DNA of 64,000 bases from Syncephalis fuscata S228 (Eukaryota; Fungi; Zoopagomycota): positions 186,001 to 250,000 of the forward strand of contig JAHLTZ010000036.1 in assembly GCA_025786725.1 (NCBI GenBank), in the 5' to 3' direction. A program made the position numbers and the translations under genes. Positions 27,442 through 57,110 of the stretch are shown in pieces; position 1 is the stretch's first letter; each line of letters begins with the position of its first letter. The notes beneath the pieces are model-generated. The model made no database searches. It saw nothing but the letters and a program-made list of their open reading frames with translations, and was not told the DNA's origin.

Positions 27442-30141
27442 TTAGTTTGAAGTAAATGGCGGTGTAGAAGAACTTGATGAATTTAACAAAGGTGACGAAG
27501 ATACTGAGGACGATGTCGAGGTTAACATAATATTATCGGTATCTTCATGACTATGAATACTACTATTGCTACTACTACTATTAATATGATTGCTAGTATT
27601 AGATGGTGTAGTAGTAATGCCAAGTGTATCGATAGTCTCTTGTTCATCGTTAGTCATAATAGTCATGGGACTAGTATGTCTAGAATTGTTTTCTGAAAGC
27701 GTATTTAATGGCAGAGTAAATGTAGTACGAGATGTTGTGTGCTGTGCACGTTGTTCAGCACGCACCATCATATTGGCATAATCATTGGTTTCCATTAATA
27801 CGCGGATCTCTTCTAGTAACTGGATATTATCATCGTGACCTGATGGATTAAATGATAATGAAGTACTGCTACTGTTATTGCTGCTGTTGCTAATAGTGTT
27901 ATTATTTGTGGTGGTGATGCAAGGCCAGGTGATGTTTGATTTAGTGTATCATCGAGTGCTAATGGAGAAAGCATTGGCGATAAATGAGTGGTTGATTTAG
28001 AATCAGTTAAATAGTCGGAAAACTTTTCTATGGGACTGCTAATTACCGAATGATCATCCTCGCACTATGTTGTTTTACAGAGATTGGTGATGAGGATTTA
28101 GTAGTGGTGGCTGTAGTAGTCGTGGTCATATCCACTTGATTCATATCAATCATATCCTCAAATTTAACTAAATCTGACAATGAATCTGAATCCATAGAAT
28201 CACTATTGCTATTGCTGCTGGTAATGGTGTGGGCAGTAGTAGCAGTAGTGGTAGTTAGCTCGGCCATTAGTGAATCGTAGCGTTGTTATGATATTTATGC
28301 GTATTGAATCTAGAATAGAGGCTGTTGTTGCTGTATTTGTGGAATTAGTGGTAGTAGTGGTGGTGGTGTGAACATTGCCCATGCTATAGTCGTGCCATGT
28401 TGGAAACATTAGTTTGTCAGATGACTCGTTTGTGTTGGCCATTGCTCGGGCTGAATAAGGGTTTGTTTCCCGTGTGGTATGCGATAGATTAGATGGGGAG
28501 AATACATTAGACCATGAGCTATTGGATTCGTTCATATTGTGTAGGCTATTGTAATGGCCACTATTCATGGACGAGTTTGAAAATGCTGTGGCGCTAATGT
28601 TATTTAATGATCCAGATGATACTGATGTTAATAATGGTGCTATGGGTGGCGATGTCGTACTTGATAGAATCGATGAAATATTAGGATTGTTACTTGAATT
28701 ATTGGCGGATGTAGGGAATGACGGTAGCCAATTAGTGTAAGAGTTGAGTTGTTGTTGTAGTTTTGTTGAATCGGCTAGATTTGCTGAAGTGTAGTTATCG
28801 TATTTCATCGTGGCCATCATGGCTGTTGGATTAAGGCCGTTTAAGCCTGTATTGGTCGATGATACATTAGTGCCAAATGGAGCAATTAGACTAAAGGCTG
28901 GATAGTTCATTTTAGATGGGCTCATAAAGGGGAAGCTAGTGCCCATTGTGGTGTTAAGTGTTGTTGATGTCGAAATGGCGTTGTTGTTACTCATACTTGT
29001 TGGTAGTGATGGTGGGCCCGCTGTGGTCATCATAATGGACTGCCGTTTGTTTAGCATAGTAGTTGGACGTAGACGTTTGGCTGAATTGCCTATAGTATTC
29101 ATGGTGTTGGCGCGTGATGATGTCGTGAATTCGGGTGCACTAATCACACGTCGTTTTTTTGTCTTATTATCAATACAGCCAGCGTTTTTTAACAGCATTG
29201 CCGATGACGAAGACACTGAAGAGGACGCCGACGAGGACGATGAAAGTAAAGGCGTTGAAGGTGTACTCGATACTTTAGACGACCGTTTCCGGGATCGCCC
29301 ACTAGATACAGGTCCTTTAGTACGTGAACGTTTCATAGTGCCATCTGCTTGGATCTCTCTATAAAAGTTCTCGTGGATAATCCAATAAGAGCCTTTTCCT
29401 CCTTCGCCTGGTTCGCGTGGCACACGAATAAAGCATTCGCCTAGTGTTAAATTATGTCTAATCGAGTTCTATTTCATAGTTAGTAAATAGAATAGTAACA
29501 GCATAAAGCAATTTAATAAACGAACCTGCCAGCCGTGTTCATCCATTCGGTAGTAGGGATGTCGTTCGGCAATTGATTTGTAAATGCTAGCTAGTGTAAG
29601 TTACCATGTTCCGAGCAGAAAATAGCCTGACTAATAAGTGATCGGTACGACAGATTTGGCTTGGTATGTGTATTATCCGGTACGCGGGACAACTCACTGC
29701 CCATGCTACTAGTCAATTGAGCATGGCGGTAGTTATGGCCATAGGAGCCGTGGCGATAAAGGCCGGATCTTTAAGACTGAAATCGCCACATGATACCGTA
29801 CCCAAAGAGGTGTGTAGATTATTTTGTGTCGATAGCGAACGATCTAAAGGTAGTGTTTTGGGCAGAGCAGTTAGGCTGTGATAGCCGCCGCTAAAGATAT
29901 TCGACATAGAGCTGATCGATGCAGGGATAGCTGCGCTGTTTGGCGATATTGATGCAGCAAATAGCTTGGGTGCAGTTAGTTGGTTCGAAGACATTGCTTT
30001 GTTCGGCAGCTTTGTCATTAAACCCATGGAGGACGCGGTGGACAGTGTCGGACAAAACGATGAACTTGTCGTCACCAGTGCCGGCTGGTTCTGCCCAAAG
30101 GAGCGCGACGGAGCAGTAGGTAAATTGTTGTAATCACACAT
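27442..30141 (-). CDS. Forkhead transcription factor, frame-disrupted in this assembly (possible pseudogene)
   Basis: Reconstructed [20 protein letters not shown](K)[25 protein letters not shown]|[29 protein letters not shown] with intron 29469-29525. At least five frame changes (~29759, ~29601, ~28285, ~28063, ~27905-27950). Confidence 0.85.
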
Positions 30142-32738
30142 GAATACTATTGGCTAGCGCACATCTAGTTTTAATGGTGCACTGTTTTTATAAAGGTAAT
30201 TAGCCATTAATATAAAATGATACGCAAGTAGTTATATAAGTAGTAAAATAATAGAAATAACAAATAAAAGGAGTGCAAAGTTTAAATTAAGGTGTATTGA
30301 ATAATGCATAGTATGATAAACAGCAACAGTGATACATAAGTACTATTATGTATGTAATATATAAATGTGCATGTAATAATCAAAAAAGGAAATGTTAATA
30401 AATGATTGCTTACCTATTCTAATACCGTTCGACGGGAGAAAAAGTTGGTGTAGACGGTTGATTGGTTGATAATGGGCACAAATGCTTGATCAATCTATAG
30501 AGTAATAATCAAAAAACAATGCACCACAATTCAGTGTGGGGCAGTAATTGGTAGTTTAGGAGACGATGTGGCGCGATAGGCCCACAAATTAAATTATTAA
30601 TAACGCAATGGATGCGAAGGGTAATAACGTCGAATGAAAGCGCGTGAAAAGATTAAGCAGTGCTGCAGGAAGGGATAAATGCGCAATTCGGACGCAGAGT
30701 TAATTGCGGGTGCAAGCAGACTGACATACACAGGAAAACGTGTCAAATAAATGATAATAATGATATTGGCGAGTGCACGACTAGTGAGAAGCTAAAGTTA
30801 ATAGTTATATTGACGTAGCACGCGTAATTGGCATCGCTTGATTTATACAATTAGAAAAAAGGGGCGTGGAAGTAAAGGACTGAACTGGTGTTGACACGTA
30901 GGTTCGCGTGGCCGGCAAAAGTTGCGGGACAGCCAGATGGACAAATATGCTACAACAAGGGAGAATTGAGCCGTTCAGGGTTGATTATTAGGGCGTGGCA
31001 GGATAACGGTTATTGCACGAGGCCAGGAGTACAAGGGTCGAGTGGGCCGCGTGCATGAGGTCGAACAGAGAACGAGCGAGTACGCGCCCTGACGACATTG
31101 GATAAAAAAGGGGGTGGGAAGACGTAGAAAGGCCGATGCGCCGTCGATAAGTAACAAGAGATACGCGAAACTTAAAGTGTAAATATTAAATGCTAGCTAG
31201 TTATAGTAATCAATGAATGAAGATGCATGATGCAGTGAGTGTGCGGGGAACTCTATTGCTGGGGTGGTTTGCTAGTAATTTAAGAGTACTTTTATCTTAT
31301 TATATCTAATAGAAAAGTAGCTTGTGCTGTCTGCATTTTACGCTGATGCAAGAAAACTATGTATTTAAATTTAAAAGTTTATTATCTAGGTGAATGAGTT
31401 AAAATGTTAATATTGCTAAAGTAGGAGTATTGGTAAAAATATATACTGTGAATTGGCCGACTTTGATAGCTAAATTATTTACTATTTTTGAGTTACGTAT
31501 ATATTAATAAATTGCTAATAGCATGTATAATAGAATAAAAGCACAAATTGTGTCACTAAAAATAATAGATATTACTAGCCAAATCATATCTGTTAATGAT
31601 ATCATATCTATATTAAAATTCGTCATCTATGAATATTAACCAGTTGGCTTGGCAAATGAACGTGGTTTATTAAAAAAAGGAACGGGCCAAGCCTTTAATT
31701 GCACTATCTGTTGGCTGGCTAAAAGGGTACACTTGTGATAATGATAAATATAAAACTATCCTTTAGCTTTTATTTATAAGCCATTAATAAAATTGTAATT
31801 ATACGCAGATAAAGGTAATTACATTTTAGAAACATTTATATAAAATAATAGTTTAGTACTAGTTATTTATATCGTTATCAAGTAATCAAATAATAAAAAC
31901 AATAATGATATTGGAACGATATCATTATTATTTGTGAAATACATACATAATTGCATAAAGTATACCAAAATTTAACTACAATGTTAATAAATGGTATATG
32001 TTTAGAAAGTGAAATGTTATAAAATAGGTGGCAAGTTGTGCAGTTAATATAAATGAATCTGCAATACTGTGATATAAAATATTAATACCACAGTAATGAA
32101 TGTAATAAAGATAGATGCCATTATTATAGTGCAACAATTTTGTTCCACTAGATTCAATTACTAGACATGTTATTGTGTAAACAAAATAAAGGAACGATTC
32201 TAAATAAAATTGAATGCATATGTCTATTAAGACTATCAGTTAAGCACATTTTATAGGAATATAGTGTTGGATACTTACACAGTGATTTAAAGCAAGCCTG
32301 AAGTTAAAAGAAACATAGTAGCAATAAAGCTAAGCAAGATGTGGGAGTCAGAAAGCGAAAAATGAAAGTTGCATTCAATCTACGCCTTTTTATAATAAAT
32401 TACGTTCATTGGTAAAATGGCGTGTATAGTAATAGTATTCATAAAGTATAACAAATATCATTTTGTTCCCAAATAAATTATTAATATAGAGCATGTTTAT
32501 TAGTGAAGCGATGAGTATAATAAGAATTATTATCATAGAGTATATAATTAGTATAGTTACAAATCAACAGCGATGAACTGTACAAGGTATAGCAACAGCA
32601 CATTAAACTATATAAATAAATGATACTATAATCGTTTGTTCATCATGTGTTTATTCAATTTGTCATATATACGTTTGCGAGGCCAGCCTAGCAATGTTAA
32701 TCTATCTACATTCATAGTTGTATAATTCGTTAAAATTA

Positions 32739-33389
32739 TTACTCTTCGTCCTTGCTACTTGTATCCTCGGAGTCATCTGTATTCTTGCCGCTTTTACCTT
32801 TGGATTCATCTTTATTCTTGCTATTTGAATCTTCAGAATCATTTTTATTCTTGCTGCTTTTACCCTTGGATTTGCCGCTTTTCTTGCTACTTTTCTTGGT
32901 GCTTGTATTCATATTGTCACCCAATGAAGCAGGGCAATCGACAAAACTCCACTTGGCAGCTAATTTACCATCTTTCTTTTTGGCTACTTTTGCAAAAGCA
33001 GCTGGACTAAGATCTATATGACCACTATTACATGCTAAGGATAATAATTAGTATTGTGTTTTTAAACTTAATAAAAAATACTTACATTCACACTTATCAA
33101 CAATTTTGACCACAACGCTACCAAGAGGTCCAGTGACTTTAGCACAGCGGCCGCACACGGATGAGTCTTCAGTATTTTTATCACTGCCAAAGTCGGATTC
33201 TCCTAAAGCTGCTACCATATCATTTTTACTGGAGGATACACCGCTACAGGCATCGTTACTTGGTGTATAATAGGTAATAATACCTCGTCGCTCAAAATGA
33301 TTGACTTGGAATGCTCGTGGATAATGTCTCTTGGCAGAGACAATCACAGCAAGACTGAAAAGGAATAAAGCAGAAAAAGTAATACGCAT
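32739..33389 (-). CDS. Secreted RlpA-like/DPBB (expansin/loosenin-like) protein, copy 1; ~64-aa K/S/D-rich tail
   Basis: Signal peptide, ...FERR|GIITYYTP..AC..DMVAAL..CGRCAKVTGPLGSVVVKIVDKCE|SCNSGHIDLSPAAF...WSFVDC; one short intron. Confidence 0.92.
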
Positions 33390-34667
33390 TTTGATGAATA
33401 AACTTTGTTAGTAAGTGTCGTTGTGTAGATAGTTATCCTGCTATCGTTGTTGTTGATTGTGGTGTTTTGTATTTGATTGCGGTACCCGCCCGACTGTTTT
33501 AATGAATTGTGTAAAAAGATGGTGGAGTTGTGATGATTTGGTCGCAATGATTGTATAATAGACGATGTTGTAAAGTGAATATATCGGCTTATACAACCTT
33601 TATTTAAATAGGAAAATCATATAGGCACTAAAGCGGTTGTTGCAACTATCGGATATGCCAATTTACGGGAATACTATTTAACATCTCCGTTAATGGCCCT
33701 ATTTTTCTTATTCTATTAATATTTCTTCACACGGCCCAATGTATTTATACTCCGTCGTTACTTAATTTAGTAATTTAATTATTGATCAGCTAATTAGACA
33801 CTTATCATACATATCCATATAATTACACAAAAATTGATAACGATATAGCTTTCAATAACATTCATTCAATGGTCTATTTTCTAACAATAATATTATTCAA
33901 AACGTGCTGCCATTTATTGGATAACGTTACTATTGCTGTTATATCGACAGGCCTCCTAGCCTGTGTATCATTACCATAACTGATGACATAAATTATCTAG
34001 CCCCTAATATTTACACTTGTAATAAATGTTTGTTATTCATACGTATGCAATATTTTTCATTTACACAAAATATAGGTATGTAACTAATTAGCGTTTATTA
34101 GCAAATAAATTAGTGATATTTTTACGTTATTTTACATATAATATATATTTGATAACTAGTATATTTTATGCAGCGTGTTCATCTCGGCTTGTTTAGAGCT
34201 GTTTTAAACTAACGCGTATCAATCGTTTCAGAATTACAAATTCATTTATAGGCATTTCTGTTTACAGCTAAATATATTTTCTAACTCGCACGATTGCTTT
34301 TTATTGCACTGCTATAAGCAGTTAATAAGCCATATCCATATCTTAAATAGTAACGCACAATAGCAATTATATCTATTACTACGTTCGTTGACACTATCGC
34401 TATTATTGCCAAGACATTGTCGATGATTTACGCAGTAATCAATCAGTATGTGCAAGTGGATCAGAACAGCGTAGCATTTTTTGTTTCCAAATAATGTATT
34501 TACATTACATTTACGGCTAGCATAAAAGCAAGTTTATTGATGCAGAGTGTAGACATGAATAGAACGCAGTGTAGTTTCATAAGCATTAGTATTAGAATGA
34601 AGGCACAGTAGTTATATATATCAAACATTTATTTGCGTTTGTTTCGGATTAGCACTTTCCATACCAA

Positions 34668-36358
<1,691 letters not shown>

Positions 36359-37240
36359 GATGAAGGAAGAGAAACGGGTATGAGGAGCAGAGGCGTCGAC
36401 ATCGGAGCCTTATTGCGGATGATTTCGGACCAAATTATATATATGTATAAATATTTCAGGTAGTTTAAATAGGTAATAAATAATAAAAATCATTTTACAC
36501 CAACAGTTAGTATATTATAGAATACATTATTGGTAAAATATAAAGAAATGGTTTATTTGTAGCAATTAATAAAATAGTAGCCACTTGTAAGACAAAGAGA
36601 CTTGCACGTCAGACACTGCCACACAAAATAATAATTCGGCACTAGTTTCAATTACTAGACATGTTATCGTGTAAACAAAATAAAGGAACGATTTTAAATA
36701 AAATTGAATGCATATGTCTATTAAGACTATCAGTTAAGCACATTTTATAGGAATATAATGTTGGATACTTACACAGTGATTTAAAGCAAGCCTGAAGTTA
36801 AAAGAAACATAGTAGCAATAAAGCTAAGCAAGATGTGGGAGTCAGAAAGCGAAAAATGAAAGTTGCATTCAATCTACGCCTTTTTATAATAAATTACGTT
36901 CATTGGTAAAATGGCGTGTATAGTAATAGTATTCATAAAGTATAACAAATATCATTTTGTTCCCAAATAAATTATTAATATAGAGCATGTTTATTAGTGA
37001 AGCGATGAGTATAATAAGAATTATTATCATAGAGTATATAATCAGTATAGTTACAAATCAACAGCGATGCATTGTACAAGGTATAGCAACAGCACATTAA
37101 ACTATATAAATAAATGAATACTATAATCGTTTGTTCATCATGTGTTTATTCAAATTTATTGTATTATATGCTTGTTAGTACTAACTCAACGCGCTAATGC
37201 ATCTACATTAGTTGCTATATAAGTTTCTAGAATCATTCTT

Positions 37241-37978
37241 TTATTTTTTGCCGCCAGCTTTTTTTTTGGAGTTACCATGGCTCTTGCCACCTTTATTTTG
37301 CTTGCTGCTATTGCTCTTATTGCCCTGATTGCTTTTCGAATTGCCAACGTTGTTACCTTTAGTTTTGCCGCTACCAGCATTTTTTATTCCGGTATTTTTG
37401 CCCTGTTTAATATTATATCCGTTTTCGGCAGTATCAGTATTGCCACTGGATTCACTGGCTTTTTGTTTTTAGCTGGAGAAGTTGATGCTAAGCTTTTGCC
37501 ACCACTTGACGAGCCAGAGCAGTCAACAAACTTCCATTGGGCAGTCAGTTTACCAGCGCTTTTTTTAGCCACTTTTTCAAAAGCAACTGGACTAAGATCT
37601 ACATGGCCACTGTTGCATGCTAAAGTAACAATTAGTATTGTATTTTTTAAACTTAATAAACAAATACTTACACGAACACATATCAACAATTTTGACCACA
37701 ACTTTACCAAGAGGTCCGGTAACTTCAACACAGCGGCCACATGTGGGTGATTTTTCGGTGTTGCCCCCATAATCGCCACCAAAATCGGATTTTGCTAAAG
37801 CAGCCACCATGTCACCTGAGCCGGAATTGCGACCACAGGCACCAAGTCCTGGCGTATAATAGGTAATAATACCTCGTCGCTCAAAATGATTGACTTGGAA
37901 TGCTCGTGGATAGTTTTTTTTGGCAGAGACAATCACAGCGAGACTGAAAAGGAATAAAGCAGAAAAAGTGACGCGCAT
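37241..37978 (-). CDS. Secreted RlpA-like/DPBB protein, copy 2; basic K/G/N/S tail
   Basis: Same exon/intron structure as copy 1 and near-identical to copy 3. A 1-nt deletion at ~37462 relative to copy 3 shifts the tail frame. Confidence 0.88.
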
Positions 37979-39008
37979 TTTGATGAATAAACTTTGTTTG
38001 TGAATGTTTTCGTATGGATAGTTATCCTATTGTTGTTGTTGTTAATGTGATGTATCGTAGTTAACTGCGGTGCCAGCCCGACTGTTTGTATGGGGTACGT
38101 AAAAAGATAATAGAGCGTTAGTGAATTGATCACTATAATTGTACTTGATGATGTTGTATAGTTTATTTGTCGGTCTATCAACCACCCTTTAAATACGAAA
38201 GTCGTATCGACGTTAAAACCATCCGTCACAGTGTCTCTTGAAACATGTATCCATCCATTTGGTGACGCCACCGTTGGCGTTTCACCAACAGGCCTCCTAG
38301 CCTGTGTATCATTACCATAACTGGTGACATAAATTATCTAGCCCCTAATATTTACACTTGTAATAAATGTTTGTTATTCATACGCATGGAATATTTTTCA
38401 TTTACACAAAATATAGGTATATAGCTAATTAGCGTTTATTAGCAAATAAATTAGTGATATTTTTACGTTATTTTACATATAATATATATTTGATAACTAG
38501 TATATTTTATGCAGCGTGTTCATCTCGGCTTGTTTAGAGCTGTTTTAAACTAACGCGTATCAATCGTTTCAGAATTACAAATTCATTTATAGGCATTTCT
38601 GTTTACAGCTAAATATATTTTCTAACTCGCACGATTGCTTTTTATTGCACTGCTATAAGCAGTTAATAAGCCATATCCATATCTTAAATAGTAACGCACA
38701 ATAGCAATTATATCTATTACTACGTTCGTTGACACTATCGCTATTATTGCCAAGACATTGTCGATGATTTACGCAGTAATCAATCAGTATGTGCAAGTGG
38801 ATCAGAACAGCGTAGCATTTTTTGTTTCCAAATAATGTATTTACATTACATTTACGGCTAACATAAAAGCAAGTTTATTGATGCAGAGTGTAGACATGAA
38901 TAGAACGCAGTGTAGTTTCATAAGCATTAGTATTAGAATGAAGGCACAGTAGTTATATATATCAAACATTTATTTGCGTTTGTTTCGGATTAGCACTTTC
39001 CATACCAA

Positions 39009-39205
39009 TTATTTGGTAACTTCGTACATAGCCTGAGCAAGATATTTGACGTTGTGCGAAGACACACCGGCAATTGAAATACGGCCATCCTTAGTCAAAT
39101 AGACATGATGATCACGCTTCAATACTTCAACTTGTTCGGGCTTCAAACCAGTGAAACAGAACATACCAATTTGGTCTTTGATATGGGACCAGTTAAGCTT
39201 GGAGC
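39009..39205 (-). pseudogene. Near-identical fragment of the AAT last exon
   Basis: Reads [20 protein letters not shown]...AMYEVTK* (one A>V change); truncated at 39205. Confidence 0.92.
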
Positions 39206-39224
39206 AAAAAATTGGCAACTAATC

Positions 39225-39293
39225 TCAATTGCCGGTGTGTCTTCGCACAACGTCAAATATCTTGCTCAGGCTATGTACGAAGTTACCAAATAA
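39225..39293 (+). pseudogene. Inverted short fragment of the AAT C-terminus
   Basis: Reads [22 protein letters not shown], followed by the AAT 3' flank. Confidence 0.92.
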
Positions 39294-40318
39294 TTGGTAT
39301 GGAAAGTGCTAATCCGAAACAAACGCAAATAAATGTTTGATATATATAACTACTGTGCCTTCATTCTAATACTAATGCTTATGAAACTACACTGCGTTCT
39401 ATTCATGTCTACACTCTGCATCAATAAACTTGCTTTTATGCTAGCCGTAAATGTAATGTAAATACATTATTTGGAAACAAAAAATGCTACGCTGTTCTGA
39501 TCCACTTGCACATACTGATTGATTACTGCGTAAATCATCGACAATGTCTTGGCAATAATAGCGATAGTGTCAACGAACGTAGTAATAGATATAATTGCTA
39601 TTGTGCGTTACTATTTAAGATATGGATATGGCTTATTAACTGCTTATAGCAGTGCAATAAAAAGCAATCGTGCGAGTTAGAAAATATATTTAGCTGTAAA
39701 CAGAAATGCCTATAAATGAATTTGTAATTCTGAAACGATTGATACGCGTTAGTTTAAAACAGCTCTAAACAAGCCGAGATGAACACGCTGCATAAAATAT
39801 ACTAGTTATCAAATATATATTATATGTAAAATAACGTAAAAATATCACTAATTTATTTGCTAATAAACGCTAATTAGTTACATACCTATATTTTGTGTAA
39901 ATGAAAAATATTGCATACGTATGAATAACAAACATTTATTACAAGTGTAAATATTAGGGGCTAGATAATTTATGTCATCAGTTATGGTAATGATACACAG
40001 GCTAGGAGGCCTGTCGATATAACAGCAATAGTAACGTTATCCAATAAATGGCAACACGTTTTGAATAATATTACAGAAAACACTTAACATTAATGCAACT
40101 ATCTTATTTAAATGAAGATCATAAATCGACGAATAAGCTTCACAACATTATTTAATATACAACCATAGCGACCAAGTCATTAAAATTATATTATTTTTTT
40201 ACGCATCTCATAGAAACAGTTAGGCAGGCGCCGCAGTTAACTACGAATATCATAATTAACAACAACGAAAAGACAATAACTCATAAAAAACATTCACTAA
40301 CAAAGTTTATTCATCAAA

Positions 40319-41055
40319 ATGCGTATTACTTTTTCTGCTTTATTCCTTTTCAGTCTCGCTGTGATTGTCTCTGCCAAAAAAACTATCCACGAGCATTCCA
40401 AGTCAATCATTTTGAGCGACGAGGTATTATTACCTATTATACGCCAGGACTTGGTGCCTGTGTCGCAATTCCGGCTCAGGTGACATGGTGGCTGCTTTAG
40501 CAAAATCCGATTTTGGTGGCAATTATGGAGGCAACACCGAAAAATCACCCACATGTGGCCGCTGTGTTGAAGTTACCGGACCTCTTGGTAAAGTTGTGGT
40601 CAAAATTGTTGATATGTGTTCGTGTAAGTATTTGTTTATTAAGTTTAAAAAATACAATACTAATTGTTACTTTAGCATGCAACAGTGGCCATGTAGATCT
40701 TAGTCCAGTTGCTTTTGAAAAAGTGGCTAAAAAAAGCGCTGGTAAACTGACTGCCCAATGGAAGTTTGTTGACTGCTCTGGCTCGTCAAGTGGTGGCAAA
40801 AGCTTAGCATCAACTTCTCCAGCTAAAAACAAAGAAGCCAGTGAATCCAGTGGCAATACTGATACTGCCGAAAACGGATATAATATTAAACAGGGCAAAA
40901 ATACCGGAATAAAAAATGCTGGTAGCGGCAAAACTAAAGGTAACAACGTTGGCAATTCGAAAAGCAATCAGGGCAATAAGAGCAATAGCAGCAAGCAAAA
41001 TAAAGGTGGCAAGAGCCATGGTAACTCCAAAAAAAAAGCTGGCGGCAAAAAATAA
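40319..41055 (+). CDS. Secreted RlpA-like/DPBB protein, copy 3; 92-aa basic tail
   Basis: ATG at 40319 (MRITFSALFLFSLAVIVSA). A 1-nt deletion at ~40462 relative to copy 2 (TGTGGTCGC vs TGTGTCGC); intron ~40624-40675. Confidence 0.88.
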
Positions 41056-41909
41056 AAGAATGATTCTAGAAACTTATATAGCAACTAATGTAGATGCATT
41101 AGCGCGTTGAGTTAGTACTAACAAGCATATAATACAATAAATTTGAATAAACACATGATGAACAAACGATTATAGTATTCATTTATTTATATAGTTTAAT
41201 GTGCTGTTGCTATACCTTGTACAATGCATCGCTGTTGATTTGTAACTATACTGATTATATGTTCTATAATAGTAATTACTATTACACGCCCTATTTTACT
41301 AATGGACATTTTACGAAAATGATTTATTTGAGACAAAATGATATTTGTTATATTTTATTGATTGCCATTATTATATTTGGCAATCGTAATTATTTAATTT
41401 TTCCTGTACTCAAAATTGTAATTTACATTTATGCAATATTCCAGTTACTGTTTGTTGCCTACATAGAAAAGGCTGTATAGTTGATTAATTAGTATTTATA
41501 ATAAAAACAAAATATTTAATATAACTCTCTGTATACACAATTATATACATGCATGCTTATTAGTGTTACTTTATTTCCATAGTAGCATTATAATACAGTA
41601 CACTAATCTTACTACTATGCTTACTATTTTGCCAATAATTATAATTTATTTTGACGTAACCTAAATTCATGCCATCTTTTTTTTTAAATCTGTATTCTTT
41701 CTCACGATTTTTATGTAAATGTTGATATTTTATTAGATTATATATGTATTATACAAGCAATAAAAATATCATGCAAATATCTATGCGCATATCCATTGTC
41801 AGTTGCTTAACAATAATTCAGGCAACTAATATTAGATTGCTGTGCGTGATTATAATTACTACAATATATTCAATTATTAGTAATGTGTCATATTTATTAA
41901 TATAAACAA

Positions 41910-42856
41910 TTATTTTAAAGTTTCAATTGAAGAAATACATAAAACGTGGCTGGTTTTTGGACGACACGATAAATCTGTAGTATTGCGCATACTATAGCAA
42001 TGGTTTGTCAACAATAATGATATAAGTAACCTGTACATAGACCTGTTAGAAATAGCATCAAATTATACTACAGAATTACTTACCAATCAATGAAAAAAAA
42101 CATTTCAGAAAAATCACCACTAGCGCTGATAATAACTACGGTTCCGCACGTAATATTACACAATATTGCTAAACACATTGTTTTTACACCGTCTTTTGTA
42201 AGCTTTCTCCAGGCATCAGATCCAAAAGCACAATACTGCTTGTAAGTAACATAGCAGAAAATTGCTGAAAAAAAGCTATTGATTGGTGTAGAGATGACAA
42301 GCCATAACCATGGAACAAATGTAGGATAGCTAAAAGCACAGCCTGCTTTGGCTTCCACAGTAATCGGACACAAAGTGATGACAATAAATATAATGCTAAG
42401 TTGCGGCAATATAAAAAAAATGCCCGCAACTACTACCCAGCGCTGACGAAGTGTTACTAAGTAGGCTTTCTGCAACATAATTGAACTGTTGCAAACGGTC
42501 GATATGGTAACACCAAGTGCTGCACACCACGCTGCCATACGGCAAGGCGGTCCATTAGAGTATAAATTGGCAGAAGTAATGAATACCGACCATGTTATGC
42601 CAGTTAGACATGGCACAAGACAGAGCCAGCCGGACATAATACCTGGGCGTGACACCACCATACGAATGGCCAGGTTGAAATTCCGTATAAAAAGAAAACC
42701 AAATATCATACCAAACACCAGTTGGTGCTTCAAGCCTACCATCCGTTCCCGCACAAGTGTTATATTAGTTGGATCTTCTAATACAAAATCAACAATAGGC
42801 ATTTCGCCCAGCGGATGTAAAGGTACGCCAAGGAATTGAGTAGCATTTCTCGCCAT
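41910..42856 (-). CDS. Uncharacterised polytopic (about 7-TM, GPCR-like) membrane protein, 2 exons
   Basis: About seven hydrophobic segments, with Cys in putative extracellular loops (PPCR, AGCAFSYP). Exon 2 reads LLISLLLTNHCYSMR...PKTSHVLCISSIETLK*. Confidence 0.75.
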
Positions 42857-43936: not shown

Positions 43937-44919
43937 TTATGCCTTTGAGTCCCTAGACACATATTCAATATTTTCTAAATCTACCACTACACGATCACCA
44001 ACTTTTATAAACTCGGGCACAGATAAACGTACTTTACCGCCTGCAACATAAGCGGTCTTGTAGCTGACGCCCTTTGATGCTTGACCGGCCGCAGGTTCAT
44101 CACGATCAATTGTGTAAATATGAGTTTTTGGCAATCGATATAGAATTGGCTGATCTGTTTCCAGTATTTGCACACTTATTATCATACCGTCTATTGACAT
44201 AATTAATCTAATAATAAGTGCACTGCATCAATGCTGTAATAGTTAACAATAACTTACCTTCAAGCAAATCCAAATGTTTTTCGCTGCCTATCAGTTAATT
44301 ACAACGATCGTTAGCATTGCTATTACCAATGGCTGTCAAGCATTTATTCATACCATCGATTGCATTTAGATCCATTTCTAGTTCCTCGTAAGTTTCCGAG
44401 TTTAAAAGTAAGCCCGATTCTTTCTTGAATACAGATACTGATGATCCTCAGTACGTAAATGAAGCACTATCCAATTTTCATTAACACAGTACTTATTCAA
44501 TAGCGCCTCCTTACCTTCTACTGTATCGCCTGGATTAAAGCGTTCCGTTTGTCTTCCGCCATTAATTGGGTCTTTCATTTCAATCTACGGTATAGTGTTT
44601 AAGCGACAGTTACTTTAACTGATACCGCCTTACCTTAATCACTGCACCGCCACGTCCAGTTTTACCATGATCGCGTTTGGTAACAAGCCAGATCTTGGAA
44701 CGAAAATCTAATACTTGGCCGCGTCGAACCTGGTTGACAGACGTACGAATCTCACGACACAAGGTCTTTAAGTTTACGCGATAGTTAGTAAGGCGGACAA
44801 CAATGACAATTACTTACCTTGGGTCCAAGTATAGAGGTCGCAAGTCTTGGTCGTAACTGAGGAATAGACGACGCTTTGTTCGACCTTATGCCACGCAAGC
44901 TATTTAGAAATAAAGCCAT
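43937..44919 (-). CDS. efp: Bacterial-type translation elongation factor P with putative mitochondrial presequence, 6 exons
   Basis: Spliced product MALFLNSLRGIRSNK...|...NQVRRGQVLDFRSKIWLVTKRDHGKTGRGGAVIK|IEMKDPINGGRQTERFNPGDTVE|...HQYLYS..LLNSETYEELEM|...LLE|DGMIISV...YRLP...VPEFIKVGDRVVVDLENIEYVSR. Apparent 1-nt deletion at ~44425. Confidence 0.9.
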
Positions 44920-45247
44920 AGTGTTACTTTTATCACTATTGACGTGTAAATAGAAAATAGTGAAAGAAAGGAACAAAAGCAATATACACTTAAAGCCACA
45001 CAAAATAGTTAGTATTAGTAATATTTGGTCATTTATTTTAAATATTTAATATTATTTGTTCTAATAATATATCGGTCTAGTAACTAATCAACGTATAAGC
45101 ATGTCAGTGCACCACATATAAAATAGATACGCGGCTCATTAAGTATAATGTAATAATATATACAAATAAAACATTATTATTAAGGCCACAGATGAAATCA
45201 ATGAGTATCTGACATTATTCTTTTTATTCTATCTTTCTTTTTAGCTC

Positions 45248-46105
45248 ATGACGAAAAGCGATTCCAGTGTCAGTGCTACGCATAGCCATAGTCAGTCGAG
45301 TAGTAAATACACTTTGAAGGCAGATCCTGCCGTTGTAGAAACGAAAGATCTAGAGAATGATAGCACTTTAGACTCTACGGATTTCATAGATCACCTTATG
45401 AATCCACGCAATGCCGCCATAGCAACTGGACTATTGCTAACTATTAGTGCTGGAGCATCGGCGCTTTTATTAAGACGCGGACCATCGGTGAAAGCAGGTA
45501 AATTAAACGTAAAAGATATAGCAATATAATAACAATAATGTAATAATGTAATAACTTACAAACGATGATATAGCACAATTACCAAAACATTTCAAACAGA
45601 TTCATGTACCAACAGCAACACCCACCAATTATAGCCATACCAAAACAGCTAATACAGATGAATTGGAGCCGTTTTCACCAGAGGCACGCCGGGTTGGTCG
45701 TTGGCTGGCTATCAAGGCCCTGCTTGCTGGATCTGCACTCTGTCTAACTGTAAGTTCTGCGGCAGCCTGGGTCGTGGGACGTGCATTGGGTGTTCACAAC
45801 GTAAGTAAAAAAATACTCATCGACACCAGCTTATTTATTAATAAACCTACGATTAGTTAAGGGAATTTTCTGATCTATGTAAGGAGCAAGTACCTATACG
45901 TGCAGCGCCGTTCCGACAGCTTATTTATCGCGGCGTCGACGAGACTGCGGCCAATGCCATTCCGCTATCTAGTGTTAAAGAGCTTGGCGATCAATTTCGC
46001 ATTGAATGGGAGCGAGAGAAGGCGAAACGACGCCAGGAACGTATGCCATCGCCAGCAAATACCATTGAAGACAATGAACATTCATTATCAAACAGCAATG
46101 CATAA
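45248..46105 (+). CDS. TMEM242/DUF1358-like small two-TM membrane protein, 3 exons
   Basis: Two TM segments. LAIKALLAGSALC...VGRALGVHN|LREFS resembles the TMEM242 C-terminal ALRALGWGS...WKALGVHS..DF pattern. Confidence 0.65.
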
Positions 46106-47026: not shown

Positions 47027-48717
47027 AATCAAGCCATAAAATAGCTAGCTACTTTAGCGTATCCGCTAATCGCACCTTTACATCGTTTATTCTAAGCAGC
47101 TACGCTCCCACTTTTTGCTTCTTTTTTCTTATTTGGTCAAACTTTCAAGTGTATGCATGTATGCATATCTGTAGCGATATTAGTAGCCTACTATCCATCC
47201 TTCTATCCATCTGCCACCCATCTACTATCTATCTATAGCGTTTTTTGCCTCTAAACTATCCTTGTATGCCATACAATTTTCACTCGCCTGCAATCACTTG
47301 ACCATTGCTCTACTTGGCACCTTTGACCAGCATACAACACTTACCCACGCACGCACCGTTTTTTATTCTTCCTGCAGCTACGGATACATGCTAGCTATTC
47401 CCCACGCGTGACCCATTGTGCATACAATCTGTCTGCATATATCGAACGGTAGTTTCCACGACGGGCGCTGTGTTATTGTTACCTTCACCATTAGTGGGAT
47501 AATAAGCTACTGTTTCTACGCTTCTTGCTCTATTCTACGCCTTGCATGGACGCTATTGTAAAGTCGATCACTTTTTATTGATTTATCCTACTTGTTTCAC
47601 TATAGTTAACGTCATCAGCCACGTTGACTATCACAAGCAAATAGCTATCATAATCGTTCTATTGATAGTACAAACGTGACAAAGGTATGTATCGGTGGTA
47701 TGTGCGCGTGTGGACTGCGTGGGTATCTCAGCTGCTTCCTGGGTGCATGTGCTCGCGAGTGCATGCACACTGCTAACTCTTACATATGCTGTTATCTTTT
47801 CTTCCCACTCCGCCTGTCGGTTTAGAAAGAAAGAAAGAAGCAGCATATGCTATTGTTAGCTGTGCTACTGCTGCTGCTGCCGTACTACTTGCTTCTACGA
47901 TAGTAGTTCGGCAAATGCTGTTGACCGGGAGTTTTGTTTCAAACTTAAAACTTTTTTTGCGTATGCACGTTGCCATTTGTCACTATTTCCATTGGGTATT
48001 GATGACCATATTCTTTTTTCTATTTCGCTTACTTAAATATCGACCTTTGCTTGTTCATATGCCATTTCCTGTATTGTTGTCTTTCTTTTGTGGTAGTGCT
48101 AATTTCTCCCTATTCAATCTACATCCCTTTTTAGTATTCATTGTTGTAGCTTCCAATTGCATCAGAGGCTATTGCACTGTGTCACTGCAACCTACAACCG
48201 TCCACCTACTACCTTCTTACTAGCCGACTCCCTTTGTCAACGCTATCAGGCGTCCTTTTTTGTTATAACAACAAATACCGTTGTTTAATTTCAAGCTGAA
48301 TTGTGTACGTGCATGTGTGGCAGTTTCACTACAACAATATTTGTGTGCAACAATATCTGTTGATTGTCTCTATATTTACACGCCAAATCCTCCTTGTGCG
48401 TTGCCTTTGTTCTTTATTCCAAACCGGTTTTCCTATAGTTTTTTAATTAGCCGTCTATTGTTTTATTTAGTGTGCTGTGCACGTATTTCATACATTGACT
48501 AACCAGTAACAACCTTTTAATAGATTCTATTGTTAGAAATCCATTCTCTGTTTGTTCAAAACCGGTTTTAGCCAGCCTATATTTTTATATATATATACTG
48601 TCTTTATCGTAATTGTCGCCGATTTTTGATCACCGCATTTTACAAATATCCAGCAATCTATTAGCAATTCATTAAGCAATCAATCCTTTAGCTTTCTACG
48701 GCCATAGCATTAATAAC

Positions 48718-50143
48718 ATGGAAAACGCACGCCTACTTTGCCTTGCTGATGCTGCTCAGCACATTAGCCGTGGATCAGCTACTGCTCCTTCTACTTATTC
48801 TACTTCTTCATCACCTGTATTACCACGACCTGGCTCAGTAGCTTTGCCACGGCCATACCCCTCTCTTCCCGCTGCTACTTCATGGGATCAGCCTTGCTTG
48901 GCACCATTTGAACCTCGTACCGATATATCTTTACCGCCTATTTCCTCTTTTCTATCTTCATCTTATACTGGCCAAGTACATTCGGCTATTCATCATACAC
49001 GTGATGCTGATATATTACGCTCATTTACACCATCACCAAAGATGTCGCCAGCCAGTGGTGGTTCATCTGGTTATGCATCGCCACTAATGCTGCCACAGCC
49101 TAGTTTGAGACTTACTACACCTACATCGTGTACTGCATATTCGCCAAGAGCATCGCCTATTCCATCTCGTCAGGACATGATGGATTGTGATAGCGATGCC
49201 AGTACACCACCACCAGCACGCATATTTGTATCTCCCACCGCCAATGTTGATGTATCAGGTCAATGCTATTTGCCATCACCTCATCCAAGTCCAAATCTAC
49301 GTGCCAATGATCGCGAATCAACTAGTGACTCTGTAGATAGCTATTCCTCAGATGTGGCATCTAAGACTTTACTACAACGAGCAAATGTTAAAGCAGGCAA
49401 TGTGACTCGTCGCCGTCGCCGTCCACCCTTCTCATACGCTTCTCTTATTGCCCAGGCCATTCTATCGGCACCAAGCCGTCAATTGACCCTTCGTGACATT
49501 TATCAATGGCTCATGGATCGTTATCCAACTCTATATCGTGCTGATGACAGCAGCTGGCAGGTGAGTTTACTAATCAACATTTTACCTAGTAACGTGTATA
49601 CTAATAATCATTTATTCATTATAGAACACTATTCGACACAACCTGTCATTAAACAAATGCTTCTGCAAGGCACCCCGTCAATCAGATGAAACCAGCCCAT
49701 TATCCAACAAAGGAAAGGGCGGATATTGGTGCATCAATGATATGTATTTACCATTGTTCCGTGACGGTCAATGGCAGCGGGCCACTGATTTGGAACCAGA
49801 AACTGGCCGACAAGTGGCCGGCCTACTACGTGTTCGTGGTGGTGTACCTCGTAAACATTCGTCCTCGATCACTGCTATGCCCAAAATGAATGCTATTAAC
49901 AGCGTACCCGCTTTAACACCATCGTCTCCTATTACAAAGGATATTGACATGAGACGCATGTCAATGGATCGGCAATCAACGCCCATGCAATCACCATCAC
50001 TCTCTCCTTGCCGTACACCGGTGACACCTCCCATGTCGTTGACCGATATTGAGACTGTACATTCAACAAAGCCAACTAGAATGTACACACCAGAAAACCA
50101 ACACCACTCAGCTTCATTCCGTATTAATCATTTGCTTAATTAG
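48718..50143 (+). CDS. Forkhead transcription factor, 2 coding exons, probable long 5' UTR intron ending at 48523
   Basis: [38 protein letters not shown]...SWQ|[13 protein letters not shown]...GKGGYW with intron 49561-49624; ends in FRINHLLN*. Confidence 0.93.
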
Positions 50144-52741: not shown

Positions 52742-54097
52742 GCTGCGTCTTTCAAAAGTTTACAGCGCTGTACTTGTAAAGCTGTGCGTGTCTGTGTGCA
52801 TATCTGTTATCTTCGACTCGTTCATTATACGGCAGTTTGTTTTTTGCTATTATTTCAGCAACGTAATACAAATAGTCAAGCACACAATGTTGCTAATGAA
52901 TTCTATTAATGTTGGGCAAAGATTAAAATGATTAATTTTACAAGTATTGGTAATTATTTTAAATATTTTAATAATTCAATCATCCATTAGTATTACTATA
53001 TCGCCATTTAATGTATTTTATTGTTAGTTTAAATTGTATTTTATTAAAACATTTGTAATTAAATAATTTAATTTATTATTGAAGTAGCCTATGTTATTTA
53101 TTACTGATAGATCTAGAGCGACTGAGATTAACATGAGATAATATAAGAGCGCATATACTAAATATATTTTATCTTTGTTTCTAAAGCAAAATGAATGCAA
53201 ACACCAGCACTGCTATTTAATTTTAGATTTATATGATAAAGCAGATAGCTTAAAATAGAGAAAAATAAAAAATTATTTTGTGTCAATGATGCAAATAGTA
53301 GCTTAGCACTAGTTATTTATATCGTTATCAAGTAATTAAATAATAAAAACAATAATGATATTGGAACGATATCATTATTATTTGTGAAATACATACATAA
53401 TTGCATAGAGTATACCAAAATTTAACTACAATGTTAATAAATGGTATATGTTTAGAAAGTGAAATGTTATAAAATAGATGGCAAGTTGTGCAGTTAATAT
53501 AAATGAATCTGCAATACTGTGATATAAAATATTAATACCACAGTAATGAATGTAATAAAGATAGATGCCATTATTATAGTGCAACAATTTTGTTCCACTA
53601 GATTCAATTACTAGACATGTTATTGTGTAAACAAAATAAAGAACGATTCTGAATAAAATTAAATGCATATGTCTATTAAGACTATCAGTTAAGCACATTT
53701 TATAGGAATATAATGTTGGATACTTACACAGTGATTTAAAGCAAGCCTGAAGTTAAAAGAAACATAGTAGCAATAAAGCTAAGCAAGATGTGGGAGTCAG
53801 AAAGCGAAAAATGAAAGTTGCATTCAACCTACGCCTTTTTATAATAAATTACGTTCATTGGTAAAATGGCGTGTATAGTAATAGTATTCATAAAGTATAA
53901 CAAATATCATTTTGTTCCCAAATAAATTATTAATATAAGCATGTTTATTAGTGAAGCGATGAGTATAATAAGAATTATTATCATAGAGTATATAATCAGT
54001 ATAGTTACAAATCAACAGCGATGCATTGTACAAGGTATAGCAACAGCACATTAAACTATATAAATAAATGGATACTATAATCGTTTGTTCATCATGT

Positions 54098-54761
54098 TGT
54101 TACTATTCCACTAAGAGTAGAATAATAAACGGATTACTAATATTATGCTTGGTCTTGAGTGACCTATAATGTTAGTAATTAGGTTATCTAAGACTTACTT
54201 AATTGTTTTTATCAATAAAGATTATTAACCTTTAATTAATAATTTCCACAGCAGTAGAATAAATGATTAGAATAGTGTTAGCTCAGATAAAAAGATCAGT
54301 TCAGTCTAGCAATCACTGCAAGACTGAAATGATCAAAAAGGTTCAAAATTTAAATAAAATAAAAAAGAATTTAAACCAAGATAAGATAATGTTTATTAAG
54401 ATTAAAAATATGGCTGCCATTTTATAGCAAATGGTCTTGGATATTACGAAGGAAGAACTTGAACAACTTGTCTGTTCAATTTCTTCTTCCGGCAATATGG
54501 GGCTAGTTTTACTGTAATAAGTAATATGGAGCCGTGAACTGCAAGTATTTATAGGCACTGTGTTTCTTGCCAAGAGTTAGGAACGATTGTAGTGTTGGGA
54601 TCGTCGTGGCTTAACCGAAAGAATGGCCATCTTTTACTAGGACCCTGACTATTACCGGAAATGGGAATAGTCACGTGATGAAGTTATTGCTAATTAAGTT
54701 TTCTACCAAATATGGTAAATAACGCAACTTACACCACAATTATACTGGTGAAATAGTAACA
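54098..54761. mobile_element. 664-bp insertion with TGT...ACA ends and 4-bp TSD (solo LTR or non-autonomous TIR element)
   Basis: Left end TGTTACTATTCCAC and right end GTGAAATAGTAACA (13/14 inverted match). ATGT is duplicated at 54094-54097 and 54762-54765. The empty site CATCATGTGTTTATTC is present in the other four RlpA copies. Confidence 0.92.
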
Positions 54762-54845
54762 ATGTGTTTATTCATTTGTCATATATATGTTTGCGAGGAC
54801 CAGCCTAGCAATGTTAATCTATCTACATTTATAGTTGTATACTTT

Positions 54846-55696
54846 TTAAGAATTATTTTTTTGCTTTTTGCCGTCAGAACTCTTTTTGGAGTCGTCATAG
54901 CTTTTGTCGCTTCCATTTTGTTCTTTATTATCCTTCTTCTTACCCTTTGACTTTTTGTCACTGCTCTTGCCATCACCGTTATGCTTGCCGGAATCGCTGT
55001 TGTTATCCGATTTCGAATTGCCATTACTGTTATCTTTACTGTTGCTATTTGACTCCGAACTGTCAGCGCTATCCCCTTCAGTCTTGCTGTTACCAGAATC
55101 TTTCTTCTTTCCATGACCTTTTCCTTTCTTAATGTTAGAGTCGCTTCCAGTAGTGCCATTCGTGTCACTGGATCCATCTGATTCTTTATCTTTAGACGAG
55201 GTTGCTGGTTCGGTAGTATTGCTGCCGCTTGACGAGCCAGAGCAGTCGACAAACTTCCATTGGGCGGCCAATTCACCAACGCTCCTTTTGGCTACTTTAT
55301 CAAAAGCAGCTGGACTAAGATCTATATGACCACTGTTACATGCTAAGAATAATAATTAGTATTGTTTTTTAAACTTAATAAAAAATACTTACATTCACAC
55401 TTATCAACAATTTTGACCACAACGCTACCAAGAGGTCCAGTGACTTCAGCACAGCGACCGCACACTGGTGACTTTTCAGTATCTTTATCATTGCCAAAGT
55501 CGGATTTTCCTAAAGCTGCTACCATGTCACTTGAGCTAGAGGACTTGCCGGAGCAGGCATCGTTACTTGGCGTATAATAGGTAATAATACCTCGTCGCTC
55601 AAAATGATTGACTTGGAATGCTCGTGGATAATGTCTCTTGGCAGAGACAATCACAGCGAGACTGAAAAGAAATAAAGCAGAAGAAGCAATACGCAT
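54846..55696 (-). CDS. Secreted RlpA-like/DPBB protein, copy 4; 131-aa S/K/D/G tail
   Basis: Intact, same structure as the other copies, HIDLSPAAF motif. Confidence 0.92.
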
Positions 55697-56748
55697 TTTG
55701 ATGAATAGACTTTGTTAGTAAGTGTCGTTGTATAGATAGTTATCTTGCTATCGCGCTGCTGTTAATTGTGGTGTTCTGTGTTTGATTGCGGTGCCTGTCC
55801 GACTGTTCTTATGAATGGTATAAAAAGATGATGAAGTTGTAATGACTTGGTCACTATGGCTGTGTGTGGGATGATGTTGTAAAGTTATTTTGTAAATCTA
55901 TGGCCTTTATTTAAATAAGAAAGTTGTATTGACGTTAAAAGTGTTTTCTATACTATTTTTAAAACATGCATCCATCCATTTGGTGACACTACTATTGGTT
56001 TCGCCAACAGGTCTCCTAACCTGTGTACCATTGCTATAATTGGTAATATGAATTACCTAGCACCCGTTTCCTACACTTGTAATAAATATTTGTTATTCAT
56101 ACGTATGCAATATTTTTTATTTACACAAAATATGGATATATAGCTAATTAGCGTTTATTAGCAAATAAATATAACTAAATGTTTACGCTATTCTACACAC
56201 AATATACATTTGATAATTGGTATATTGTATTGATTTGAACATATCATTCATTACACTGTGTTCGTGTCAATTTTTAGAGCTGTTTCAGCCAAGTACGCAA
56301 ATCTATTGTTTTAAGAAATTAAAACTGTTTTATGGCTATTGCCATTATAGTCAAATATACTTATTTCCTAACTCTTACAATTGCCTTTTATTGCATTACT
56401 ATAATCGGCTAATATGACACATCTATATTCCAAATACCAACATCCAATGATGATTTATCTATTATTATATTCGCTGGTACTAGCCCTACTGCTATCAACA
56501 CATGTCAGTGATCTACGTGCTGATCAAACAGCACACAGTAGTGGGTAGCGAAGTGGGGCATATCCTATTTCTATATGCTGTAGCTGTACCATATTAATGC
56601 TAAAATAGATACAGATTTATTGATGCAAGGCGTATATATCAATAAAACGCAATGCAGTTTCATAAGCATTAGTGTTAGAACAAAAGCATTGTAATATATA
56701 TAGCAAACATTTATTTGCATTTGTTCGCATTAGCACCTTTCATACCAA

Positions 56749-57110
56749 TTATTTAGTAATTTCGTACTGACTTGGGAGATATACTTGACGTTATGTGAAA
56801 ACACACCGGCAATTGGAATACGATCATCTTTAGCCAGATAGACATGACGATCACGCTTCAATGTCTCAACTTGGACAGGCTTCAAACCAAAGCAGCGGAG
56901 CATACCAATTTAATCTTTGCTATGAGGTCAGTTAAGTTTTGGGCCAAAACCATTGATTAAATAGTCATACAGCTGGATATATATAGAAATGAGACTTTTG
57001 CCCATCGTCTTAGCTTTACTGAGTTTTAAGGAAGAACATAGGTAATAAAGAAGTATAATAATATGTAATGTTTGATTTATTTATAACCATCTACCGTTCT
57101 TGGCGCAAAG
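56749..57110 (-). pseudogene. Decayed AAT 3' fragment (last exon, preceding intron and a trace of the previous exon)
   Basis: Recognisable ETLKRDRHVYLAKDDRIPIAGVFSHNVKY with stops and indels. 57093-57113 matches the AAT ...LRQEW exon end. Confidence 0.88.

Follow-up and report, generated by a model that had tools for sequence, protein, structure and literature searches.

A spliced nuclear gene of Syncephalis fuscata for an arginine-tipped, probably mitochondrial elongation factor P

Is elongation factor P (EF-P) truly missing from mitochondria? An EF-P homologue is described as absent from mitochondria in PMC11381339, and likewise in PMC12996406 and PMC12856214, and PMC13602936 gives TACO1 as the mitochondrial factor. 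A locus in the fungus Syncephalis fuscata S228 raises this question anew. In a 64,000-nucleotide stretch of its genome (the window; contig JAHLTZ010000036.1, positions 186,001 to 250,000), a gene on the minus strand (44919-43937) encodes a protein with the domains of EF-P, an arginine as the tip residue of the functional loop (Arg72) and a basic N-terminal extension. From comparison with its relatives, we consider it very probable that this is a mitochondrial EF-P of some kind.

An expressed six-exon gene for an EF-P family protein

The gene is nuclear, spliced and expressed. Its six exons are separated by five GT..AG introns of 52, 49, 48, 66 and 67 nt, all of which were spliced out in a single contig of run X1 that spanned 43943-44967 with zero mismatches. 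None of the runs listed for the locus is recorded as RNA; X1 was presumed to be RNA, and its own contigs were spliced, both at the EF-P gene and in a control stretch (500-17400). Run X2, which reaches only 44952-45050, was left aside. Relative to the assembly, the contig carries one extra A behind 44403. The coding sequence as assembled is 701 nt long with a premature stop in exon 4; with the extra A it becomes 702 nt and encodes 233 amino acids. The sequence-only reading had argued that the introns exclude bacterial contamination, and this source was rejected here on the spliced introns and on the eukaryotic neighbouring genes (forkhead, KH, glutaredoxin, AAA). The features of the locus are as follows.

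44920..44967, minus strand: transcribed 5' leader (X1 contig; minimum extent, as the contig ends in adapter-like letters)
44818..44919, minus strand: exon 1, opening with the ATG at 44919 and encoding residues 1-34, the greater part of the predicted presequence (net +6, acid-free)
44766..44817, minus strand: intron 1, 52 nt, GT..AG, with a CTAAC branch-point-like motif (spliced in X1 contig)
44634..44765, minus strand: exon 2, end of the presequence and most of domain I (KOW) (Pfam EFP_N, 28.8 bits)
44643..44669, minus strand: beta3-beta4 loop HGKTGRGGA, tip Arg72 codon at 44654-44652 (aligned with E. coli Lys34)
44585..44633, minus strand: intron 2, 49 nt (spliced in X1 contig)
44515..44584, minus strand: exon 3, last part of domain I, including an ERF motif (Arg93) like that of alphaproteobacteria (sequence comparison)
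44467..44514, minus strand: intron 3, 48 nt (spliced in X1 contig)
44354..44466, minus strand: exon 4, domain II (OB), containing the assembly indel (X1 contig; orthologue comparison)
44404..44407, unstranded: apparent frameshift, run of four A in the assembly and five in the transcript contig (X1 contig; control omissions)
44288..44353, minus strand: intron 4, 66 nt (spliced in X1 contig)
44258..44287, minus strand: exon 5, 30-nt micro-exon, domain II (X1 contig)
44191..44257, minus strand: intron 5, 67 nt (spliced in X1 contig)
43937..44190, minus strand: exon 6, last part of domain II, then domain III (OB) with its remodelled E-site-codon loop, TAA ending at 43937 (Elong-fact-P_C, 41 bits)

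By its domains, tip residue and fold the product is a member of the EF-P family. Pfam was scanned with exons 2 and 6 singly and with the intact 233-aa orthologue from S. plumigaleata (P0002), rather than with the joined S. fuscata protein. Exon 2 scored above the EFP_N cut-off (28.8 bits versus 23) and exon 6 above that of Elong-fact-P_C (41 bits versus 25), while P0002 exceeded all three EF-P cut-offs (PF08207, PF01132, PF09285). The two proteins share 152 of 189 residues in the core and 7 of the first 38 (ungapped). Together with the structure model of P0002, these matches identify a KOW domain followed by two OB folds, and the six-exon gene with all EF-P domains proposed from the sequence was thus borne out by X1 splicing and the orthologue matches. 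The tip of the beta3-beta4 loop carries the expected basic residue, Arg72, and the equivalents of E. coli Tyr183 and Arg186 are Tyr226 and Arg229, each present in 19/20 fungal rows. A phmmer comparison of the S. fuscata protein with a solved EF-P gave E = 6e-23. The AlphaFold model of P0002 (mean pLDDT 87; 51-63 for residues 1-40 and mostly >90 afterwards) matched Thermus thermophilus EF-P in Foldseek at E = 7e-18, and the top 16 matches listed were all EF-P or EfpL (E = 5e-18 to 3e-13), with IF5A appearing later (1e-9). Two related identities were rejected: EfpL/YeiP, on the E. coli EF-P loop length, a Lys at the place of the EfpL Pro and an EfpL model score of 75.6 against a cut-off of 216; and eIF5A, which has no domain III and gave a far weaker structural match. 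The protein is likewise neither EarP-type nor Lys-type, as detailed below.

The apparent frameshift, which had been placed at ~44425, lies about 20 nt away in the A4 run at 44404-44407. The proposal that it might be real and the gene unexpressed is contradicted by the X1 transcript, where the extra base is present and the introns are removed. Across the 16.9-kb control stretch, X1 contigs showed four more one-base insertions relative to the assembly, one two-base insertion and 9 substitutions. The single bases absent from the assembly fall at 4651, 4939, 5317 and 10524, and the first two coincide with frame jumps of an AAA gene that we take to be PEX6-like (Pfam gave AAA only). Since the transcript has the extra base and the assembly omits single bases elsewhere, a true frameshift was rejected and the indel is most likely an assembly slip, a conclusion drawn from one RNA run and the intact orthologue. 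Transcriptional slippage was also rejected as the origin of the extra A, given a run of only four and like omissions at non-run sites. The assembly is inclined to lose single bases, and other gene models built on it may hold false frameshifts. One affected model is the database protein KAI9592345.1 (P0001), to which exon 6 is 100% identical: it skips 16 residues of domain II around the indel (44424-44466), and therefore its PF01132 score falls below cut-off. In this region, exon 4 matches the S. plumigaleata orthologue at 16 of 22 residues (102-123). The present gene structure corrects that model, restoring the 16 residues lost through the assembly slip.

Presequence, distribution and origin

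Mitochondrial targeting is strongly suggested by the composition of the N-terminus. Residues 1-38 contain 5 Arg, 2 Lys, 5 Ser and zero Asp/Glu, the first acid being Glu39, as expected from the Arg/Ser-rich, acid-free N-terminus first read from the sequence. The extension as a whole comprises 40 residues with a net charge of +6 and one acid, and Arg38 stands three residues ahead of the predicted mature start, Arg41. This character is conserved across orthologues. Among 22 named fungal proteins, 21 extend beyond the bacterial EF-P start; these extensions have a net charge of at least +3 in 19/21 and no more than one Asp/Glu in 20/21. Arg occurs precisely three residues ahead of the bacterial start in 16/21 extensions, compared to 11% at other extension positions (binomial P = 6e-12, a value that overstates significance because the rows are kin). 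Arg at -3 is the R-3 cleavage pattern of matrix peptidases on mitochondrial presequences. Judged by composition, the extension has the features of a cleavable presequence: it is basic, poor in acids and carries an Arg close to the predicted cleavage site. Of the earlier claim of a mitochondrial presequence, the basic acid-poor character thus stood and was extended to the orthologues, with the matrix location itself as a prediction.

Orthologues were found well beyond Syncephalis. The full phmmer scan returned 2590 matches at E ≤ 0.001. Among the 150 matches listed, 20 were looked up by exact sequence, and further member names came from protein matches outside those lookups. Named fungal orthologues occurred in at least 21 genera. 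This included Syncephalis, Basidiobolus, Coemansia, Dispira and Smittium; Lichtheimia, Rhizopus, Bifiguratus, Mortierella and Linnemannia; Geranomyces, Nowakowskiella, Terramyces, Boothiomyces, Polychytrium, Zopfochytrium, Entophlyctis, Gaertneriomyces, Caulochytrium and Rhizoclosmatium; and Allomyces, which we take to represent Zoopagomycota, Mucoromycota, Chytridiomycota and Blastocladiomycota. Some of these members already carry the label 'elongation factor P' in databases. Arg-tipped relatives beyond fungi came from Stenamoeba (amoebozoan), Cyanophora (glaucophyte) and Chlorokybus (streptophyte alga), and the nearest atlas clusters were plant and green-algal EF-Ps (0.94-0.96). None of the named matches belonged to Dikarya or animals, with about a dozen fungal-clade rows carrying no names; absence from these groups rests on literature for yeast and human rather than on this search.

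Other eukaryote-like rows retained the Lys tip. Five of the proteins retrieved (P0061, P0062, P0097, P0102, P0103) combined presequence-like N-termini with a Lys-type PGKG loop, and the three of them used in the careful tree described below all fell within the alphaproteobacterial-related clade. This suggests a second, Lys-tipped type of mitochondrial EF-P in other eukaryotes. A further 200-aa EF-P (P0057) shared the loop TAQRAA with the sequence from the jakobid Andalucia; we read it as a variant of the jakobid kind, whose tip may sit in a shifted register.

Profile scores and phylogeny both placed the fungal proteins with alphaproteobacterial EF-P. A profile (A1) built from a 30-row fungal-clade alignment, which included Stenamoeba and rows without names, gave scores of 165-195 bits (median 179) for 69 named EF-Ps from alphaproteobacteria and of 109-148 bits (median 130) for 14 named EF-Ps from other bacteria. 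In a second sample, drawn independently of fungal similarity as the best 30 loci by TIGR00038 score from a 61-genome Pseudomonadota draw, Arg93 was present in 5/30 loci, which scored 172-185 bits, compared to 96-137 bits for the other 25. We take these five loci to be alphaproteobacterial from their motifs. Arg93 was found in 23/23 named fungal rows and in 1/14 named non-alphaproteobacterial rows.

A first FastTree phylogeny resolved the fungal clade and left its bacterial relatives unresolved. In the careful tree (82 hand-picked rows, 184 columns, LG+C20+F+G4) a single branch (99/94) set apart a side holding 19 fungal and 13 further eukaryote-like rows, together with 15 alphaproteobacterial and 12 unnamed ones. 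The fungi among them grouped together (91/75); nested in this group were the chytrids (98/94) and a cluster of Zoopagomycota with most of the Mucoromycota (99/96), and Mortierella was misplaced. The approximately unbiased (AU) test rejected a tree in which fungi were held with bacterial Arg-type rows (EarP-like plus Gly-Arg-Gly; P = 0.003), whereas holding all eukaryotic Arg-type rows together was not rejected (P = 0.087); both groupings were defined after a quick preliminary tree had been seen. A single eukaryotic Arg group had SH-aLRT support of 89 in that quick tree and was unresolved in the careful one. The phylogenetic check with alphaproteobacterial sequences proposed from the sequence supported, together with the profile scores, the endosymbiont-derived origin it was meant to examine, within limited bacterial sampling, and the gene likely descends from the mitochondrial ancestor.

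A wider scenario can be put forward tentatively, as a joint reading that we hold to be possible rather than probable. An early eukaryote would have switched the Lys tip of its endosymbiont to a modification-free Arg, and a single organelle-adapted form would persist in green plants and glaucophytes, in an amoebozoan and in fungi that diverged early, the fungi having rebuilt the domain III loop. EF-P would later have been lost in yeasts and animals, where TACO1 was left alone.

Loop tip, domain III and the proposed function

Alignment confirmed that the loop HGKTGRGGA carries Arg at the place of E. coli Lys34. Arg72 was invariant in 30/30 aligned relatives, and Gly71-Arg72 was fixed in 23/23 named fungal rows, with varying flanking residues. 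The loop has the length of that in E. coli EF-P, with neither the Pro of the Lys-type nor the Pro and two extra residues that mark EfpL. It is consequently distinct from the beta-lysylated or PGKGP Lys-type (Thr70-Gly71-Arg72-Gly73 in the fungal protein) and from EfpL/YeiP, whose longer loop has a Pro three before Arg. Nor does it belong to the EarP-rhamnosylated branch: in four EarP-like rows (Neisseria, Pseudoalteromonas, Aeromonas, Ilyobacter) the residue after Arg is Asn or Ser, compared to Gly in 18/20 fungal rows, and this difference together with the AU test led us to reject EarP-type ancestry. Of five solved-structure alignments compared, that with T. thermophilus had the most similar loop, HQKLGRGGA.

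A genome-wide search covering 61 genomes drawn from the alphaproteobacterial class found EpmA above cut-off in 22 (21/60 without one unpublished genome) and EarP in one. This suggests that the likely donor group was Lys-using, sometimes beta-lysylated and almost never dependent on EarP. Beside efp, epmA was found in 0/30 frames (30 of 66 listed, on the upstream side only, from 20/80 loci). According to PMC12931083, 206 Arg-type EF-Ps are without a known modifier, and of six such proteins expressed in E. coli three were active unmodified and three barely active; the same source describes a Thermus EF-P crystal structure without modification and a Deinococcus EF-P active unmodified. As the fungal loop is of canonical length, Thermus-like and unlike EarP substrates, our best guess is that Arg72 probably acts unmodified rather than with an unknown modification. 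On the activation chemistry, which the sequence-only reading had called unknown, EarP-type ancestry is rejected and the loop better fits the unmodified Arg class.

Domain III has diverged further. In E. coli EF-P, residues 144-GDT-146 of this domain contact the E-site codon (PMC11611912). Of 30 alphaproteobacteria, 29-30 carry GQT at the corresponding place, and algal and plant-like rows largely retain the motif, whereas fungi have in its place a degenerate stretch of variable length, ending in a conserved Lys-Gly. This fungal trait had not been remarked on in the sequence-only reading.

Taken together, we lean towards a model in which an endosymbiont-derived EF-P is imported and relieves proline stalls with an unmodified Arg72. 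The gene is transcribed, its five introns are spliced and the transcript has an open frame of 233 aa. The 40-residue basic, nearly acid-free presequence would direct import and be cut near Arg38, leaving a mature protein that begins at the bacterial EF-P start. By analogy with other family members, the product, L-shaped and built of three domains, would bind a stalled mitoribosome between its E and P sites, where the domain I loop would steady the CCA end of peptidyl-tRNA-Pro. If these steps hold, Arg72 would more plausibly than otherwise act unmodified, as proposed for the Arg EF-Ps of the Thermus/Deinococcus type. The Lys tip of alphaproteobacterial EF-P would have become Arg in the organelle lineage, so that EpmA/EpmB would no longer be needed, and degeneration of the KGDT/KGQT E-site loop in fungi would suggest weaker codon reading on the mitoribosome.

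Several observations weigh against this model. The amphipathic moment of the S. fuscata presequence is modest (0.37 at best). P0002 falls under the bacterial equivalog cut-offs of TIGR00038 (131.7 versus 185.8 bits) and PRK00529 (136.3 versus 161 bits), which are nonetheless its best-scoring families; with the degenerate domain III loop, these missed cut-offs mean that function may have drifted. The 69 alphaproteobacterial loci were fetched with the query and a pattern that included the ERF motif, making their 69/69 Arg93 circular. The bootstrap of the careful tree stopped short of convergence (0.966), its rows included no named cyanobacterial, Thermus or myxobacterial sequences, and the 12 unnamed rows of the clade are possibly not alphaproteobacterial. 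Genomics cannot separate unmodified from unknown-modified Arg EF-Ps (PMC12931083), and half of the Arg-type proteins expressed in that study were barely active in E. coli. Finally, transcript support consists of one contig of one run, and DNA-run coverage of the indel is zero.

Two alternatives keep the protein in mitochondria and concern its tip or its task there. Arg72 might be modified by a mitochondrial enzyme not yet tied to EF-P, for example through methylation, hydroxylation or glycosylation. Most EF-Ps are modified at the tip (PMC13602936), the fungal loop, canonical in length, is without the EfpL extension and without the flanking prolines that take the place of a modification (PMC11611912), and Arg72 is invariant. 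However, the residues around the tip differ widely among fungi, a poor fit to the recognition site of one enzyme. Moreover, canonical-length Arg EF-Ps of Deinococcus and Nitrosomonas are active unmodified in E. coli, and EarP itself is set aside by the rejected ancestry and its single occurrence among the alphaproteobacterial-class genomes. We regard a modified Arg72 as unlikely. Less likely again is that the protein has moved from proline rescue to another ribosome job, such as first-peptide-bond formation, large-subunit rescue or assembly, while TACO1 would handle proline stalls as it does in humans. The E-site-codon motif kept by alphaproteobacteria but lost in fungi, the scores under the equivalog cut-offs and the listing of both EF-P and Taco1 for Andalucia would fit such a shift; the conservation of the tip Arg, of the C-terminal Tyr and Arg and of the three-domain build would not, and bacteria too have EF-P alongside YebC (PMC12234827).

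The other two alternatives touch the origin or integrity of the gene, and we consider each very improbable. Horizontal transfer from an Arg-type bacterium, for which the betaproteobacterial endosymbionts of early-branching fungi offer an example donor, would bring with it a need for EarP-like rhamnosylation. The Arg tip and the Gly-Arg-Gly loops of several bacterial rows are compatible with it. Against it stand the AU rejection (P = 0.003, for rows picked after the first tree was seen), the Asn/Ser that follows Arg in the four named EarP-like rows but is Gly in 18/20 fungal rows, and a gene tree that broadly tracks fungal groups, fitting vertical descent. A pseudogene with a true frameshift in S. 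fuscata, or a product that stays cytosolic, could be read from the frame broken in exon 4 of the assembly and from the 16 residues missing at the same place in KAI9592345.1. Yet the transcript contig has the extra base, the assembly is short of single bases elsewhere (two of them at the PEX6-like frame jumps), the skipped domain II region is conserved and so, for a cytosolic product, is the presequence character. We retain the imported, stall-relieving EF-P as the preferred model.

Surrounding window and comparison with known systems

Several other features were observed in the window. Adjoining the EF-P gene on the minus strand (42080-42856) is an intronless 258-aa ORF with several hydrophobic stretches and no Pfam match, and a multi-exon gene on the plus strand (45245-46105) is placed divergently, with no Pfam match for three ORF pieces. 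Two forkhead-domain genes lie less than 21 kb apart (28212-29468, minus strand; 48676-50140, plus strand). About five recent duplicates of one cassette, direct and inverted, occupy 31843-41309, 53293-57058 and 60702-62893. Their long arms are 74-100% alike, with one 852-nt pair at 100%, and the cassette contains a secreted-looking expansin/Barwin-like gene (two copies with weak EXPB1_D1 matches) and part of an aminotransferase 3' region. These copies could mean that a mycoparasite has expanded a gene family, or they could stem in part from duplication in the assembly.

The retained, endosymbiont-derived mitochondrial EF-P proposed for one fungus was supported, as part of a wider family spanning early-diverging fungi and other eukaryotes, and predictions in protists came earlier. 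A full-text search, with most subscription journals outside its reach, found no papers on a fungal mitochondrial EF-P. Mitochondrial EF-P had thus been predicted or proposed before in protists; what is new is an Arg-tipped, domain III-remodelled branch in opisthokonts. If the protein is mitochondrial, the unqualified statement that mitochondria have no EF-P is contradicted, and the account of TACO1 has been framed on that absence. The absence would then reflect loss in yeasts and animals, since a presequence-bearing EF-P was kept across four fungal groups. The factor would thus occur in the sister group to animals, and in fungi amenable to culture, making it testable how EF-P and TACO1 divide the work on one mitoribosome, what allowed the loss of EF-P, and whether a bare arginine is enough at the peptidyl-transferase centre.

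Among eukaryotic counterparts, the closest is the EF-P listed, along with Taco1, among predicted mitochondrial translation factors of the jakobid Andalucia godoyi (PMC7050145). It is likewise nuclear-encoded, with three domains and a presequence Arg three residues before the domain start, but it is intronless, 218 aa long, has the loop TAQRAA in place of GRGG and is known from one line of a proteome catalogue. PMC8550323 proposed a two-domain candidate in Plasmodium (PF3D7_0913400) and described the family as unseen in mitochondria until then. This nuclear homologue was also ranked mitochondrial and has a basic tip residue, but lacks the C-terminal OB domain, whereas the fungal protein has all three domains.

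Bacterial Arg-tipped proteins resemble the fungal EF-P mostly in the loop. The unmodified Arg EF-Ps of T. thermophilus (PDB 1UEB/4V6A) and Deinococcus radiodurans share the canonical-length loop ending in GRGGA and gave the top structural match, but in the tree the fungal protein joins the Lys-type EF-Ps of alphaproteobacteria and lies apart from the Gly-Arg-Gly rows of bacteria. The likeness of the loops looks convergent, Thermus itself being outside the tree rows. EarP-rhamnosylated EF-Ps (Pseudomonas, Neisseria) share the Arg tip and differ in their loop (KSGRNAA) and separate branch; EfpL/YeiP shares it too, but has the loop SPTARGAAT, with two more residues and a Pro three before Arg, and again a separate branch. 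The alphaproteobacterial Lys-type EF-P (PGKGG) is the nearest among the sampled bacteria, with the ERF motif (Arg93) and a Tyr before the domain III Lys in common, whereas its own Lys tip with upstream Pro, its intact KGQT loop and its want of a presequence set it apart. Two further factors share the task of relieving polyproline stalls: TACO1/YebC (TACO1 in human mitochondria), which has an unrelated fold and binds near the A site, and eIF5A in the cytosol, which is without domain III and matched the structure model far less well.
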